This document shows, piece after piece, positions 4,534-23,931 of a stretch of 64,000 bases of DNA. How positions within the stretch are numbered: position 1 is the first letter of the stretch; every line of letters begins with the position of its first letter. A model generated the notes under the pieces. The model saw only the letters and a list, made by a program, of their open reading frames with translations. It was not told the DNA's origin and did no database searches. The translations under genes were made by a program, and so were the position numbers. Source of the DNA: Trypanosoma brucei (lineage: Eukaryota); the NCBI GenBank assembly GCA_000002445.1, contig CP000066.1, forward strand, positions 992,001 through 1,056,000, read 5' to 3'.

Positions 4534-4713
4534 TACCTCCGTCGCAAGGGTATTCGAACGGTGCATGTGTGCAGGGTTGCTTTGATTCCGCCGCCGGCGT
4601 CCCCCTGCTGTAGCCGGGGTCTGACATATGTTGTCTTCAGGGTGTTGACCGCTTCGGTAGCCACCCGCCTGCAGTTTTTACTTCATTTTACTCCAACTAT
4701 GTCATGCCGGGGC

Positions 4714-18114: not shown

Positions 18115-20133
18115 ATGGTAACTGCGATGGCAAACACAAAAAAGAAAGTTAAGGCATCGGTACCTGAAGGGGCGACATCGTCATTGAAAACAGAAGATAT
18201 GACGGTACCGCGGGATCAAACATCTACCAGTAAGTTACCCATTAGCCGGGTGAGCCGCCGCCTTGGTAGTGTACAGGCGAAACTTGACGGTGGACCCGAT
18301 GTCTTTTTGTCATCCCGCCAGGGTGGCAGCGATCTCACCCGCGAGTGCCTTGCGTCACTATACAAGTTAGCTTCCTCTATGCATTCGCGGCAGTTGACAT
18401 ACTACAGTAAGTCACTAGAAACAAGCCGAGCGCGGCACGTGACATTGGAGCAGATATGGGGTCAGATGAGCATGCTCCTCCCGCCTGTCTTCCGTCGCCT
18501 ACGGGAAAATGTGCGGCGCGCACAGAAGATGTACGGCTGTGGAGAAACTCAAGGGTCGCAGGTCAAGCAGAGGTCTAGTGACAATAAGAGCGGGAGCGGC
18601 ATGCACAACGGTAAGAAAGACAAAGAGGACAATAGAGAGGATGATGTTGACGCGTCTTCGGCACACACTTCCCAACTAAACGAAAGTGACCTTGACAATG
18701 AGATTGCAGAACTTCTTGCCAAGCAGCGTGAGGCAAGAAAACGCAGGAAGAGGAACGCGGCCGACGACTCGTGGCGTTACGTTTTTGGCAAGGGGGATGG
18801 AGAGGAGGATGCCGATGCCGAGGGTGGTGAGGGATGGAGCGAGGGGGAAGAAGACCGGGAGGACGGCAGCGAGAGTGGTAACGATAATGAAATGGATGCT
18901 TTGCGCGGCCGCCGGAAGGGCTCACGTGATGTGACAGCTCCGGGAGATTTTGGTGGTGACGGTGAAGATGCTGATGACGAAGAGAAGCAATTAGCGCAGG
19001 AAGAGTTGGAGGCCCTGAAAGAGATGTACGGCGAAGACTTTGTGCCAAATGAAGAGGATGAAGAATGTGAGTATGACGATGGGGAGGGTGACTTGGGAGA
19101 TGACGATCAGTTACTCGAAGAAGATCTGAAGTGGGATGACCCATCGGCAGTGTTTAGTGGAAAAGATGCTGCCCTTAAGGGTGAAGGAGAAGGTTGGTAC
19201 GATGGCGAAGATGATATCCTTGCAGAAACGGGCCAAGAAGGTGACATGGGTGACGATATGGAGGATGATGCGGCATTGAATGACCCCAGTCTTACCGAAT
19301 TGCAGCGTGAGCGGCTACGTGAACGGCGCTTTGTTGAAAAACTTGAGCAGGCGAGACTCTACAGTACGCAGTGGGCGATGTCAGGCGAGGTGAGCGGCAG
19401 CAATCGGCCTCGTGATGCCTTGCTTGACGAGGCACTCGACTTCGAGTACGCCATGAAGGCGGTACCAGTCATTACCGAGGGGTTTACCGCAAAGCTGGAG
19501 GACCGCATCCGCCGCCGCATCGTTGACAATAATTACGACGATGTGCAGCGTCGCACTGCGTTATCGACACCTAGTGATTTAGCTTCAATGTCGCGGCGCG
19601 ACGATGCGTCTGCTAAGGACTCGGAGAAGGCGCGTATGTCGCTGATGGATTTATACGAGAAGGAGTATCTGGACCGCGTGCGGCGTGCTGAGGAGAGCGC
19701 CGCTGGGGGCAGTGCCGCTGAATCTGCTGAGCCGTTGACGGAGATTGAGAAGGACGAGCTGCGTGCCATTCATATGTGGCGGCGACTAGCCCAGCATCTC
19801 GATGCGCTCAGCAATTTCCACTACACGCCAAAGCCCGTGCAAGAGGATCTGTCGGCCCGCGTGCGCGCGGTGGAGGGCCAGGCCCCAGCAATTACTTTTG
19901 AAACAGTTGGGAATTTTGCCACTACGCGCGAAGCTGCACTTGCTCCACAGGACTTATATCGTGGCTCAGATCGCAAGTTTGCGGATGTTGGGGTAAACGA
20001 ACTTCAGCCACATGAGAGGCGGGCGCTGCGCCGTGCAAAGAAGGAGCAGGTGAGTACCTCACAGGCGATAAAGGAAAAACATAAGGAACGAGCCAAGAGG
20101 GCCAAGGAGCAGCTACGGAAGGCTGCTGCATAG
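18115..20133 (+). CDS. probable U3 snoRNP protein MPP10 (long D/E-rich centre, Lys/Arg-rich C-terminus)
   Basis: The C-terminal segment DFEYAMKAVPVITEGFTAKLEDRIRRRIVDNNYDDVQRR resembles the conserved Mpp10 PVIT...LEDIIKRRI motif as I remember it. The overall acidic architecture is also consistent with Mpp10. Confidence 0.5.
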   Translation: MVTAMANTKKKVKASVPEGATSSLKTEDMTVPRDQTSTSKLPISRVSRRLGSVQAKLDGGPDVFLSSRQGGSDLTRECLASLYKLASSMHSRQLTYYSKSLETSRARHVTLEQIWGQMSMLLPPVFRRLRENVRRAQKMYGCGETQGSQVKQRSSDNKSGSGMHNGKKDKEDNREDDVDASSAHTSQLNESDLDNEIAELLAKQREARKRRKRNAADDSWRYVFGKGDGEEDADAEGGEGWSEGEEDREDGSESGNDNEMDALRGRRKGSRDVTAPGDFGGDGEDADDEEKQLAQEELEALKEMYGEDFVPNEEDEECEYDDGEGDLGDDDQLLEEDLKWDDPSAVFSGKDAALKGEGEGWYDGEDDILAETGQEGDMGDDMEDDAALNDPSLTELQRERLRERRFVEKLEQARLYSTQWAMSGEVSGSNRPRDALLDEALDFEYAMKAVPVITEGFTAKLEDRIRRRIVDNNYDDVQRRTALSTPSDLASMSRRDDASAKDSEKARMSLMDLYEKEYLDRVRRAEESAAGGSAAESAEPLTEIEKDELRAIHMWRRLAQHLDALSNFHYTPKPVQEDLSARVRAVEGQAPAITFETVGNFATTREAALAPQDLYRGSDRKFADVGVNELQPHERRALRRAKKEQVSTSQAIKEKHKERAKRAKEQLRKAAA

Positions 20134-20933
20134 GAGTAAATAAGAATTTCGTATGATTTTTTCCGATGCGATTAACAACTGTGTCCTGTCGTGTGGCCAC
20201 AGGGGAGGAAGTAACGAGTGTGGGCTAAGAGGACGTCAGATCCGCAACGGGTGAAGTGTGTTCGGTGACTTTTCCGGGCACCTTCCCACTTTCTTACTCC
20301 TTCCTTCATTCCTTCTAATAAAGGGACACATTACATTAATAATAAAAGTGAAGAAGACGACGGCAGAGAGTTTGCTTGCAGGTGTGGCACATTGTGGGAA
20401 GGTACTACATTACTCTTGTGGTCGACCGCATTCGCGGTCAAATTACTTGAGGGGTATTGTTTTCAATTTATTCTTCCCTTTTTTTCTTCGCAACCGATGA
20501 TGCTTAGCTGTTGAGCTAGTATTTGGTTAAGTTGGGTAGCTGGAAGAAGTATGGAAATAGTGCGAGTAGGGGAGGAAAATAGGCCATTAGTCTGCTTGCT
20601 CGTCTCTGTTCTGGGTCATAAGTTTCTCTCTTATTCCGAGAAAGTTACCTTACTTCTACGATTTCTTTGGATTTTGTACCTTGTATCAGGTGTGGGTGGC
20701 TCTGACCTCCGGTATCTGGATTTTCTTTTTTCCATTTATCTTTTTTGTTACTACCACTTCTGTAAGGACCGAGCAAGTTTTCTACTTATATACTCAGTTC
20801 AACTTCTGCGTTGAGTATATATATATATATATATTTTCGGCACCCCAAACTGTGCGAGGGAGTTGGGGTTTCTCACATCGAGCAACTCATATTGAGGTGA
20901 AGGTCAGTAGCCACTTCACTACGGGAATTTCAC

Positions 20934-21458
20934 GTGTTACTTCGGCCAGCACGCTGCCGCTTCCAAAGAGCTATGCCCATGCTGGTCCCTTCCAAACCCG
21001 TGTACGTGAAGTCCAAAGAAGAATATCAGATGGCGCTGCGCGGGAGTTTCTCCGCTCCCAAGTCTGAGTGGCCGCTACCTGCTGAAGTGAATATCAAGCC
21101 CTGCGTAGTTTCCGCTCCAGCATCCGTCCCAATGTGCGGGGGCGCAGGGTTCACCGAACCTTCTACAGTTTCCTCTTCTCCCTCAGCTTCGGCCTCATCC
21201 ACCATGTTTCCCGTGCGTCGTTTTCCCTCTGCGAGTGCTTTAACGGGAACGAACGGCCCTTTGCCGATGGTAAAGACGGCCGACAGTTTTGGAATGGTTG
21301 GAAACCGGATGCCTCCTGCATGGAAACCTTTAGCGCAGCCCATGACAAAGGGCGCTAAGAGAGGCAGGAAACCGGGAAGTAAAACGGTAAACAAAGTGGA
21401 CATGGCCGCGGGCACAAAACGACAGCGCGGGATAGAAAGTTTTCTCATCCGGAAATAA
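20934..21458 (+). CDS. small basic Ser/Pro-rich hypothetical protein ending in a PIP-box-like motif (QRGIESFL) with an AT-hook-like KRGRKPG; an alternative start is at 20973
   Basis: Coding-like GC-rich composition inside an otherwise low-complexity spacer. The C-terminal QxxIxxFL lies 4 residues from the stop, as in PAF15 and p21. See findings. Confidence 0.35.
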   Translation: MLLRPARCRFQRAMPMLVPSKPVYVKSKEEYQMALRGSFSAPKSEWPLPAEVNIKPCVVSAPASVPMCGGAGFTEPSTVSSSPSASASSTMFPVRRFPSASALTGTNGPLPMVKTADSFGMVGNRMPPAWKPLAQPMTKGAKRGRKPGSKTVNKVDMAAGTKRQRGIESFLIRK

Positions 21459-21540
21459 TACAAATCAATGTCTATTTGTGTACCGCTACTGTTCGAGAAT
21501 CTTTCTTTCTGTTTGATCGTTGATTTTCCTTCGTTACGGA

Positions 21541-21560
21541 CACACACACACACACACACA
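21541..21560. repeat. (CA)10 microsatellite
   Basis: Direct reading. Other (GT/TG)n-rich tracts are at 1081-1097, 24090-24150 and 25352-25396. Confidence 0.9.
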
Positions 21561-22520
21561 CCCATATATATAGTTCTCATATAAACAAGTGTGATTCGCA
21601 CTTTGGTGGAGGATTTGTTTTTTTTTTTTTCGAGAAACCAAATTTTCAGTGGTCTCTCAATTCTTGAGGGATAACCGAAATCAACAAAAAATACAAACTT
21701 ATATATCTGCGCGTAAATAAGCAGTTTTATAAATACGTACCCAGTGCTCTCGAAGTGGTTCTCTGTTTGTTGAGTGTTTCCCCTTATCAGTGAACATTCC
21801 CTCACACGATGTGTTTTTGCAGTAAAACAAAATGAGTAAGGAGGCTGTCAACCAAATACTGTGTGCGCGTTGATGGCGATGTATGTCAGTGCAAAGGGCG
21901 ACATTTTTGTATATGTTCGTGCAAACGACGTTACTTTTCTTTCTTTATTTTTGTTTGTTGGAGTTATAACTGTGCGAGTGGGTTGAGAGATTGCAGGGAG
22001 AATGCGAATGGATGATAATTTTGGCGTGAGTGGGACCGCACAGAAAGAGGTTAATTGGATGGAAGGCCCCAAAAAGTCTTCGTCGATTTGTGGGAAGCCT
22101 TCAGAGCATCTTTTTTTTTTGGTGTGCGCATGCTATCTTTTCACTGCTTCCTTATTGTGCGTGACGTGGACACGCCTATATACAGATATGCGCGCGTATG
22201 TCTGTATTATTAATTCTCTCTCCCTCCTAATCTTTCCAGTTGCCTCACTTTTCTCGCTATATGTAACTGGGTTCTTCATTTTGGAAGTCGGACTTTTTCT
22301 TTCTTTTTCGTTGGATTTTTTTTACCGTCCTTTGCCCTGGCCCGTGGAAGATGTGCAAATATCAAATAATTCTGGTGAGCTTGTGGCGTGTGTTTGCTTA
22401 AATGGGGGACACAGGTATTTGACTCACACGGAAAATAATTGCGCAGTAGTGGCTGTTCTACTGGTGACGCTCAAGTGAAGGTAAATGGATGAGCGTACGT
22501 GAACGCAAATAAATTAATAA

Positions 22521-22551
<31 letters not shown>

Positions 22552-22845
22552 ACGATAATAATAATGCTTTGGCGAATGCTTACACGCTCATGCACTGACC
22601 CTCAGTGGTATGATTTGGCTTTCCTTCACCCTCTTCTGATTTTTAGTACCGTCAACCTTCGGGTGCCCATCGAGAAGAAGCGCAGCCACGCGCCGGCGCG
22701 TACAAAGTAAGCACCCAACGCGCAGAAAAGGAAAAGGAGCGAGTCCTGAGGAACATTAGTCATAGCAATTGATTGGAAATTCAGTTTTAAGAGGAAGTGA
22801 GAAAAAGGAAACACTGAAGGAGCACAACAGGGACGCGAGTGAAAC

Positions 22846-23931
22846 ATGCCTTCATTTGTTCTCCACCCCGGATTTGCGGGACACAGTCTTCGGTGTAACC
22901 CATGGCAACCAACGCAATTCTTGGTGACGGCGTCAGAACATTTCGGTGTTGCTGGCAGCGGGAAGGTATATGTTGTGAACACCTCACAGGGGCTGCAACC
23001 ACATTCACCTGTGCAGCTTGTTGGTTGCTGGGGGACAAGTGACGCGGCTTTTGACGCTTGCTTCAGTGAGGTCGATCGTGACCTCGTGGCAGTGGCATGT
23101 GGAGACGGTGTGAAGTTGTATAGCCTCCAGCAGTCCTTCAACCGTGACGGGGTCATGCCGGTCGCACATTCAACAGAGCATCGCGCTGAAGTTGTTGGAG
23201 TTGCGTGGTGTCGTGATGCGTTTCTTTCCTGCAGTTGGGATGGGGCTGTGAAGCTCTGGAAGGCTGCGACTCCCCAGGTTTCTTTTATGACATTCCACGA
23301 ACACTTGAAAGAGGTTTATGAGGTGTCCTGCAGCACCTTTAACCCTGCGTCGTTTCTTTCATGCTCTGGGGACGGGACATGGAGGTTGTGGGACTCTCGT
23401 TCGCCACGGTCGGTTTTGACGCAAATTGGTCACGGGCACCAGCCCATCCTCAGTATTGATTTTAATAAGCAGGACAACAGTATCTTTGCTACTGGTGGTG
23501 TTGATCGCACAGTCCATTTGTGGGATGTGCGTCGACCGCAACGGCCCCTTACAGTGTTGCCCGGCCACGATAACGCGTGCCGACGGGTTCGCTTCTCCCC
23601 TCATTCGCGCACATTGCTCGCTTCCTCCGGCTACGACTGCCGTGTGTGCTTGTGGGACCTCAACCAACCACAGCGGCCGCTTACTGCCCGTTATGCCCAT
23701 CACCGGGAGTTTGTTGTTGGCCTCCAGTGGTCACTCGCTACTCCCAATGCATTAGCTTCCGTGTCATGGGACGGCAGCGCATTCTTTTGGACAAATGGCC
23801 AGCCGCTTACGCCGTCACCCTCTTCCCAACCGCTTCCACCTGCCATCCCACCGCCACGCGTTCGGCCTCCTCGCCCAAAAGGTGTCCCCGACATTTCTGC
23901 GCTCCCGCTTACCGTGCCCCCAGTCAGGTAG
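22846..23931 (+). CDS. PEX7: peroxin-7 (PEX7), the PTS2 receptor for glycosomal import; WD40 protein with a Pro-rich C-terminal extension
   Basis: The N-terminus AGHSLRCNPWQPTQFLVTASEHFGVAGSGKVYVV parallels the PEX7 N-terminus (HGYAAEFSP...AQHYGIAGCG). Multiple WD repeats (HLWDV, CLWDL, SWDG). Confidence 0.8.
   Translation: MPSFVLHPGFAGHSLRCNPWQPTQFLVTASEHFGVAGSGKVYVVNTSQGLQPHSPVQLVGCWGTSDAAFDACFSEVDRDLVAVACGDGVKLYSLQQSFNRDGVMPVAHSTEHRAEVVGVAWCRDAFLSCSWDGAVKLWKAATPQVSFMTFHEHLKEVYEVSCSTFNPASFLSCSGDGTWRLWDSRSPRSVLTQIGHGHQPILSIDFNKQDNSIFATGGVDRTVHLWDVRRPQRPLTVLPGHDNACRRVRFSPHSRTLLASSGYDCRVCLWDLNQPQRPLTARYAHHREFVVGLQWSLATPNALASVSWDGSAFFWTNGQPLTPSPSSQPLPPAIPPPRVRPPRPKGVPDISALPLTVPPVR

Follow-up and report, generated by a model that had tools for sequence, protein, structure and literature searches.

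The Trypanosoma brucei DNA analyzed here, a stretch of 64,000 nucleotides (the window), belongs to chromosome 3 (1.65 Mb) of strain TREU927; both large open reading frames (ORFs) flanking the locus under study are identical to TREU927 proteins. Between the genes for MPP10 and PEX7, at 20973..21458 on the forward strand, it carries a genuine trans-spliced protein-coding gene of 161 codons plus TAA that was missed by the GenBank T. brucei annotation. The coding sequence is supported by the ORF itself, by synteny, and by the pattern of indels and third codon positions. A preliminary description, made from the letters alone, had taken a small basic ORF in this spacer for real coding sequence and not untranslated region (UTR); the ORF is conserved and a spliced-leader acceptor has been mapped upstream of it, which bears that proposal out. 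On the sequences compared, the protein family is specific to kinetoplastids and conserved across them. Its T. brucei member is predicted to be mostly disordered and seems to consist of short linear motifs strung together, the last of which resembles a PCNA-interacting peptide (PIP) box; we give even chances to the idea that this tail docks the predicted protein onto PCNA.

Orthologous loci were reached through the MPP10 orthologues of other kinetoplastids, whose neighborhoods were compared. The order MPP10-X-PEX7 is kept in every kinetoplastid compared, X being an ORF of 106–249 codons. The syntenic ORF is present in eight other kinetoplastid taxa, plus T. b. equiperdum, starts with M-x(1-3)-LVP, and carries the PIP-like tail in most taxa. 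The orthologues are from T. cruzi (159 amino acids (aa), TcCL_NonESM06072; unannotated in CL Brener, called in four newer assemblies), T. theileri (175 aa, TM35_000091810), T. rangeli (143 aa, TraAM80_02894), T. conorhini (135 aa, Tco025E_03321), Leishmania donovani (249 aa, LdCL_290012500 / LDHU3_29.1060), Leptomonas pyrrhocoris (242 aa, XP_015658828), T. vivax (180 aa from the homologous Met, TRVL_02807), and a metagenomic kinetoplastid (106 aa, JGI metagenome 3300075940). The T. brucei ORF has all three marks of this MPP10-PEX7 intergenic family: the syntenic position, the N-terminal pattern LVP...E[FY]...L...W, and the C-terminal GxKRxR. The orthologue was called as a gene by six other genome projects, all members carry hypothetical or uncharacterized labels only, and length varies since the disordered middle is unconserved. 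The check for syntenic conservation suggested at the outset thus found the ORF conserved across trypanosomatids, and the expectation that the gene would be unannotated or merely hypothetical was right: the GenBank T. brucei records lack it, and elsewhere it is labeled "hypothetical".

The substitution pattern is that of coding sequence. When the three T. cruzi-clade genes are aligned as nucleotides, the indels are 39, 9, 21, 9, and 3 nt, all multiples of three, and codon position 3 is the most variable, in this clade and likewise between L. donovani and Leptomonas; a comparison of this kind had been proposed to tell coding sequence from UTR, and it came out in favor of the former. The Nei-Gojobori ratio of non-synonymous to synonymous substitution (dN/dS) is 0.26 in Leishmaniinae and ranges over 0.51–0.73 in the T. 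cruzi clade. Values of 0.26–0.73 indicate purifying but relaxed selection, as expected of a disordered protein. Residues 1–28 are invariant among four T. cruzi strains, whose substitutions are grouped in the middle. The T. b. equiperdum ORF is intact, with one synonymous and two non-synonymous changes and no indel, and the spacer around it has seven indel events; three substitutions are uninformative on selection. The G+C content of the T. brucei ORF is 0.547, vs 0.435 and 0.414 in its two flanks.

Several orthologous models and assemblies have peculiarities of their own. The T. vivax model TRVL_02807 (290 aa) is 5′ over-extended by ~110 codons, the homologous Met lying at 4636 of locus L004, and the two T. 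vivax assemblies (L004 4306–5178; L003 10163–11094) differ by a frameshifting mid-ORF indel, both being without the PIP-like tail. The compact genome of the metagenomic kinetoplastid (L011 2254–5808) has two extra genes between MPP10 and the orthologue, of 416 and 718 aa and without Pfam domains, the 718-aa product probably being a coiled coil; the called 141-aa model of the orthologue itself probably starts ~35 codons too early. On the T. rangeli AM80 contig (L006 7621–8635, 9015–10667), N-filled gaps are accompanied by duplicated flanking sequence, and a partial second copy of the orthologue start and a duplicated block in PEX7 look like assembly artefacts.

Trans-splicing and the corrected gene model

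Predominant spliced-leader acceptor sites (SAS) on chromosome 3 (v4) were tabulated by Kolev et al. 2010 (PMC2936537, Table S12). The entries for the two neighboring genes, MPP10 (SAS at chr3 1,009,870, 5′UTR 245) and PEX7 (chr3 1,014,647, window 22647, 5′UTR 199), fix the coordinate conversion as chr3 = window + 992,000. A third SAS, at chr3 1,012,767 (dispersion 0, 5′UTR NA), is credited to "Tb927.3.3600" in the same table (PMC2936537); it corresponds to an AG acceptor at 20765–20766, with 20767 as the first base after spliced-leader addition (20765..20767, +). All three mapped SAS lie directly 3′ of an AG in the window. A polypyrimidine tract, a 26-nt C/T run at 20721..20746 (+) whose next AG is at 20765, was chosen from the sequence independently of the published SAS at 20767; such a tract followed by an AG is the typical context of a kinetoplastid splice acceptor. 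The preliminary description had guessed an acceptor at ~20840–20930: a mapped site does exist, and its actual position is 20767. From there a 5′UTR of 206 nt, without upstream ATG, extends over 20767..20972 (+). Because there is no ATG between 20601 and 20972, that at 20973 is the first ATG, and the ORF it opens the first reading frame, of the mapped mRNA.

The frame first pointed out, 20934–21458 (+), is present and counts 174 codons from GTG 20934. A GTG start is implausible for a eukaryote, and the extent has to be shortened accordingly: since the orthologues all begin with M-x(1-3)-LVP, matching ATG 20973, translation starts at that ATG and not at GTG 20934, leaving 161 codons. The C-terminal residues quoted earlier were exact (...KGAKRGRKPGSKTVNKVDMAAGTKRQRGIESFLIRK-stop).

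From the stop codon of MPP10 (20133) to the ATG of PEX7 (22846), the spacer measures 2712 bp, in agreement with the 2.7 kb first given. MPP10 (Tb927.3.3590; AAZ10392, XP_843951), the upstream neighbor, occupies 18115–20133, and PEX7 (Tb927.3.3610; AAZ10394, XP_843953), the downstream neighbor, 22846–23931. The gene that GenBank places between them is a different ORF, Tb927.3.3600 (AAZ10393, XP_843952, 158 aa), at 22002–22478 (+). Its G+C content of 0.438 is UTR-like, none of the other species compared has a match to it in the syntenic interval, and a 2-bp indel at 22111–22112 breaks it in T. b. equiperdum. In codon-usage log-odds trained on the long genes of the window, it scores as high as the 20973–21458 ORF. 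Since the next acceptor is the PEX7 site at 22647, the Tb927.3.3600 ORF most likely lies in the 3′UTR of the 20973–21458 mRNA (inferred as 21459..22600, +, with an approximate end), and it is probably spurious.

The reference annotation is thereby corrected: the real MPP10-PEX7 gene is the 20973–21458 ORF, and Tb927.3.3600 is apparently part of its 3′UTR. Datasets keyed to gene models, such as RNAi screens, tagging, and proteomics, would have missed or miscredited the real gene. No 161-, 159-, or 142-aa version of the protein was found in a collection of 15 billion proteins, where it is missing from every T. brucei-group protein set; a later community gene model may nevertheless exist. A literature search found no mention of the locus tags, LDHU3_29.1060 is not listed in an L. 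donovani Ribo-seq supplement, and an Rfam scan of 20000–23000 gave sub-threshold noise only, indicating no known RNA gene in the spacer.

Two kinds of short sequence element were also seen in this region. A PUF9-type UUGUACC lies at 20674–20680 (+), ~90 nt upstream of the mapped acceptor, in the MPP10 3′UTR or intergenic sequence; there are four copies of UUGUACC across the whole window. A (TA)n microsatellite occupies 20817–20836 (+) in the 5′UTR, its length in T. b. equiperdum differing by a single repeat unit, and a second microsatellite, (AC)n, lies at 21540–21562 (+), just past the stop codon.

Motifs of the predicted protein

The 161-aa protein (17 kDa, pI 10.45) has 23 K+R vs 8 D+E. AlphaFold2, run on an alignment of eight sequences, returned a mean predicted local distance difference test score (pLDDT) of 59.5 and a predicted template modeling score of 0.19, with two elements only: a helix at residues 15–25 (block pLDDT ~92) and a short helix at 154–157. 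The Ser/Pro/Ala-rich, disordered body proposed earlier finds support in the disordered middle of this model and in a composition of 48% S/P/A/G/T. The N-terminal helix lies in a conserved island, residues 4–33 (20982..21071, +), that was delimited in alignments A1 and A4. The island follows the pattern [LF]-[VL]-P-x5-[VIL]-[LK]-[ST]-x-x-E-[FYLM]-x3-[LM]-x(8-10)-W, or LVPxxPVxVLSxxE[FY]xxxL...W in short form, and its residues P6 and E17 are invariant in 9/9 taxa.

Between genera, the middle part of the protein cannot be aligned. Secondary islands within it were read from the orthologous loci L001, L006, L008, L007, and L010. Trypanosoma species have a small SPW[SK]/PPAWK island (T. brucei residues ~100–125, window ~21270–21345), which takes the form D-[VL]-x-x-[VL]-S-P-W-S in the T. 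cruzi clade and has a possible counterpart, PPAWK, in T. brucei. An acidic stretch, VLISEDE in Leishmaniinae and IIDVDEMDD in T. theileri, resembles a SUMO-interaction motif.

Toward the C terminus lies a basic patch, K126–K141 (KGAKRGRKPGSKTVNK; 21348..21395, +), that is basic in most orthologues and is probably either the upstream half of a bipartite nuclear localization signal (NLS) or generic charge flanking a DNA or PCNA contact. Its K-R-G-R-K-P-G had been called AT-hook-like. The core of an AT-hook is R-G-R-P, of which G-R-P is invariant, with basic flanks; the T. brucei patch reads RGRKP, with K before P, and lacks this core. The corresponding region reads KAKKAKKP, KVRNRTRP, KAGKGKK, and KSRRGHS in orthologues, only L. 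donovani having KGRPGK. The patch is thus conserved only as basic, and we reject the AT-hook assignment. Further downstream, G147-T-K-R-Q-R152 (21411..21428, +) belongs to a G-x-K-R-x-R element whose residues G147, K149, R150, and R152 are invariant in the eight taxa of alignment A1. K-R-x-R is kept in 9/9 taxa, with GRKRRR in T. vivax and ATKRLR, where A replaces G, in the metagenomic kinetoplastid. KRxR fits a monopartite NLS and overlaps position 1 of the PIP-like motif; judged by this signal, the protein is probably nuclear.

The PIP-box-like motif itself, Q151-R-G-I-E-S-F-L158 (21423..21446, +, from the ORF reading), is followed by I-R-K and the stop codon; the segment around I154, F157, and L158 reads AAGTKRQRGIESFLIRK. 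Residues 151–158 match Q-x-x-[ILM]-x-x-[FY]-[FYLM], in line with the PIP assignment first proposed, and the motif is conserved at the same terminal position in most lineages. The tail consensus [QRK]-x-x-[IM]-[ED]-x-[FY]-[FLM]-x-R, placed 1–3 residues before the stop, fits a PIP box in 7/9 taxa (T. cruzi, T. rangeli, T. conorhini, T. theileri, L. donovani, Leptomonas, and T. brucei), and the fuller C-terminal consensus is GxKR[QRK]Rx[IM][ED]x[FY][FLM]xR. Within T. cruzi strains, position 8 is polymorphic for F and L. In the seven lineages, acidic or polar residues occupy positions 5–6 and the motif has basic flanks; acidic residues at these positions together with basic flanks are a feature of high-affinity PIPs. 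In the AlphaFold2 model the motif sits within a disordered protein, with a short helical turn on I154–F157.

Readings of the PIP-like tail

Binding of PCNA through PIP boxes has been documented in trypanosomatids (PMC7255605, PMC5053586). We think it an evenly balanced proposition that the protein is a small nuclear adaptor or regulator tethered to PCNA where DNA is replicated or repaired; its import into the nucleus, its binding to PCNA, and its adaptor function are all inferred here from motifs. KRxR and the upstream basic patch would serve as the NLS, the short helix of Q-R-G-I-E-S-F-L would insert into the hydrophobic pocket of PCNA, aided by the basic flanking residues, and the N-terminal helix motif LVPxxPVxVLSxxE[FY]xxxL...W would contact a second partner. 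A conserved, lineage-specific, disordered protein that combines a PIP-type tail with a second docking motif is a candidate parasite-specific PCNA partner. If PCNA binding fails, a new gene model and an uncharacterized kinetoplastid family would still be useful.

A number of observations weigh against PCNA tethering. Five taxa have Q at position 1, which T. cruzi replaces by R and T. theileri by K; non-canonical PIPs have K, R, or M there, and for K or R at this position, as for L at position 8, there are precedents in Pol iota, Pol kappa, p12, RNase H2B, and archaeal RFC-L. AlphaFold2 confidence at the C-terminal helix is moderate (block pLDDT ~65). Translated in six frames, the window contains 14 matches to the strict expression Q..[ILM]..[FY][FYL], and for this reason a match in a single species is not evidence by itself; of these 14 matches, only QRGIESFL lies at the end of an open frame of ≥100 aa. 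The argument for a PIP box comes from conservation of the tail at its C-terminal position in orthologues and not from the motif match. T. vivax ends in KRRRGTE-stop in two independent assemblies, with no convincing frameshifted or read-through PIP motif found after its stop, and the metagenomic kinetoplastid ends in KRLRDDDIVERVSTHLK-stop. Both tails are without the aromatic motif, though both proteins keep the N-terminal motif and KRxR. Because the PIP-like tail has been lost in these two taxa, it is dispensable in some lineages, and the family's core function may be something other than PCNA docking. Finally, the CAUAGAA S-phase or cycling element was not found in 20134–22845, in either UTR.

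These facts lend some weight to a less probable but still credible explanation, in which the tail is not a PCNA ligand and the N-terminal helix motif and NLS form the core of a nuclear adaptor or chaperone unrelated to the clamp. Rev1 and Mlh1 are among the other partners of PIP-like motifs, and with similarly restrained probability the I-x-x-F-L tail could bind another partner or merely extend the NLS. Retention of the N-terminal motif and KRxR in 9/9 taxa next to loss of the aromatic tail in T. vivax and the metagenomic kinetoplastid, the commonness of the PIP expression by chance (14 in the window, six frames), and the failure to find a replication-type regulatory element or homology to any clamp partner would all suit it. 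However, seven lineages of Trypanosoma and Leishmaniinae keep PIP positions 1 (Q/K/R), 4 (I/M), 7 (F/Y), and 8 (F/L/M), together with acidic residues at positions 5/6 and basic flanks, and this whole pattern is more specific than a generic hydrophobic tail. Nor does the tail fit any RIR (which needs FF), MIP, APIM, or RVxF pattern, as judged against consensus sequences.

Homology searches identified no known relative. A word-indexed single-sequence search of 5.8 billion proteins gave no match at E ≤ 10, and a phmmer search of 1.84 billion representative proteins none at E ≤ 0.001; these single-sequence searches were empty because the family is too short, disordered, and divergent. A profile of eight sequences brought back no members beyond those of T. 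theileri and T. vivax, which the alignment already contained; its candidate list was saturated with low-complexity words. Pfam gave no match for the T. brucei protein at E ≤ 1, nor for all eight aligned members at E ≤ 10, and a profile search of PDB chains, including POLD3 and Pol32, with the C-terminal alignment was empty. When the family profile was compared by hhalign with p21, p27, and p57 sequences, 15 columns were aligned, covering the PIP peptide only (probability 0.8%, P = 0.069); in the p21 alignment GTKR-QRGIESF is paired with GRKRRQTSMTDF. The kinship with PAF15 or p21 that the first reading had implied is consequently not upheld, with no Pfam, PDB, or profile match and an hhalign alignment confined to the PIP peptide. 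Homology to PAF15 was rejected (no Pfam match, no KEN or RxxL in the sequence, a terminal PIP), as was homology to CIP/KIP proteins (no Pfam CDI match, and nothing found by hhalign in the N-terminal kinase-inhibitory domain, RxLFGPVD ... WNFDF). A canonical PIP degron, as carried by the CRL4-Cdt2 substrates p21, Cdt1, Set8, and Spd1, was rejected for T. brucei, which has E-S vs T-D at positions 5–6 and whose chain stops at +3; at +4 after the PIP, R occurs only in the T. cruzi clade, and Leishmania has E. A recognizable POLD3 was likewise rejected, the protein being without the CDC27 domain and without a winged-helix fold by Pfam and AlphaFold2.

Kinetoplastid replication has gaps into which such a protein might fit, with no Cdt1, a divergent ORC, and an uncharacterized Pol delta composition (PMC5662062). 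It is unlikely, in our estimation, that the family stands in for a replication factor never found in kinetoplastids, either a minimal third subunit of Pol delta or a PCNA-controlled protein in the style of p21 or Cdt1. If it did, the N-terminal helix-Trp motif would be a new type of module for partner binding and, in the p21/Cdt1-style case, a previously unseen layer of S-phase control would be possible in trypanosomes.

In the first version, which we regard as improbable, the protein would be a minimal, highly diverged third Pol delta subunit like POLD3, Pol32, or Cdc27, in which the N-terminal motif binds POLD2, a disordered, charged linker follows, and the terminal PIP binds PCNA. Human POLD3 ends in ...NRQVSITGFFQRK-stop, yeast Pol32 in ...QGTLESFFKRKAK-stop, and S. 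pombe Cdc27 in ...QKSIMSFFGKK-stop, and the T. brucei tail, ...KRQRGIESFLIRK-stop, runs closely parallel to them. The terminal motif Q-x-x-I-x-S-F-[FL]-x-R-K-stop is strikingly like the POLD3 and Pol32 tails, a likeness that serves as a lead and not as a test. The plan is also the same (N-terminal binding element, long disordered region, terminal PIP), our literature search found no description of a kinetoplastid POLD3, and the composition of Pol delta in trypanosomatids is uncharacterized according to the review cited above (PMC5662062). Against this, no family member matches Pfam CDC27 (PF09507) even at E ≤ 10, AlphaFold2 shows an 11-residue helix vs the winged-helix domain of ~100–140 residues in POLD3, the profile search of PDB chains that include POLD3 and Pol32 was empty, and the protein has a third to half of the usual length.

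In the second version, more doubtful again, the protein would be a PIP-degron substrate or p21-like inhibitor, destroyed on chromatin-bound PCNA in S phase; by analogy with p21, Xic1, Cdt1, and Spd1, its N-terminal module would inhibit a cyclin-dependent kinase or another S-phase target. With an N-terminal helix and conserved Trp joined by a disordered linker to an NLS and PIP at the C terminus, the protein would suit such a plan, and the T. cruzi-clade tails QRTIEDFLARRR, QRSIENFLARQR, and RRTIEEFFSRQR carry a basic residue at +4, resembling Cdt1 QRRVTDFFARRR and p57 LISDFFAKRKR. A nuclear CUL4-DDB1 ligase is present in T. brucei, but CDT2 (DCAF2) is listed as absent from Trypanosoma (PMC11763709). 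Moreover, the T. brucei chain ends at +3 with E-S and not T-D, Leishmania has E at +4, there is no conserved RxL among the orthologues and no Pfam CDI match, and hhalign with p21, p27, and p57 aligned the PIP only (P = 0.07).

Least probable by far is a chance ORF within UTR that yields no protein: its absence from the T. brucei-group protein sets of the 15-billion collection, a codon-usage score equal to that of the probably spurious Tb927.3.3600 ORF, and the fairly high dN/dS of the T. cruzi clade (0.5–0.7) could be read that way, but the comparative data, in which an ORF of 106–249 codons with the same end motifs is open in the syntenic slot of nine taxa, indels are multiples of three, the first ATG after the mapped splice acceptor opens the frame, and six other genome projects called the gene, effectively refute it.

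Likeness to known PCNA partners

PCLAF/PAF15 (~111 aa) is, like the predicted T. brucei protein, small, basic, and disordered; it is nuclear, and a PIP box is its main feature (QKGIGEFF vs QRGIESFL). It differs in its KEN and D-box degrons and its H3-like N terminus, which are absent from the T. brucei protein, and the kinetoplastid family in turn has its own N-terminal helix-Trp motif. The extreme C-terminal location of the PIP had been likened to that in both PAF15 and p21. The PAF15 PIP box is central, at residues 62–69 of 111, and only the comparison with p21 is positionally apt. The C-terminal PCNA-binding region of p21 CIP1 (GRKRRQTSMTDFYHSKRR) and other CIP/KIP proteins share with the T. 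brucei protein an NLS-like KR cluster fused to a near-terminal PIP box in a disordered protein. Unlike p21, the T. brucei protein has no detected kinase-inhibitory domain or TD pair, and it is without the basic residue at +4.

POLD3, Pol32, and Cdc27 are alike in having a PIP box at the extreme C terminus followed by 2–5 mostly basic residues, a disordered charged body, and an N-terminal partner-binding element. The arrangement of a terminal PIP and then a few basic residues is found in T. brucei as QRGIESFL-IRK-stop. These subunits differ in being much longer and in possessing the CDC27 Pfam domain and a winged-helix N-terminal domain. The large subunit of archaeal RFC (...QATLFDFLKK-stop) resembles the T. 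brucei tail at the motif level only, with F-L at positions 7–8, a terminal location, and basic residues after it; in archaeal C-terminal PIP boxes, Q-x-x-[IL]-x-x-F-L is a functional PIP variant, carried by unrelated proteins. The PIP-box protein type is already known, and what is new is a lineage-specific gene of an uncharacterized family.

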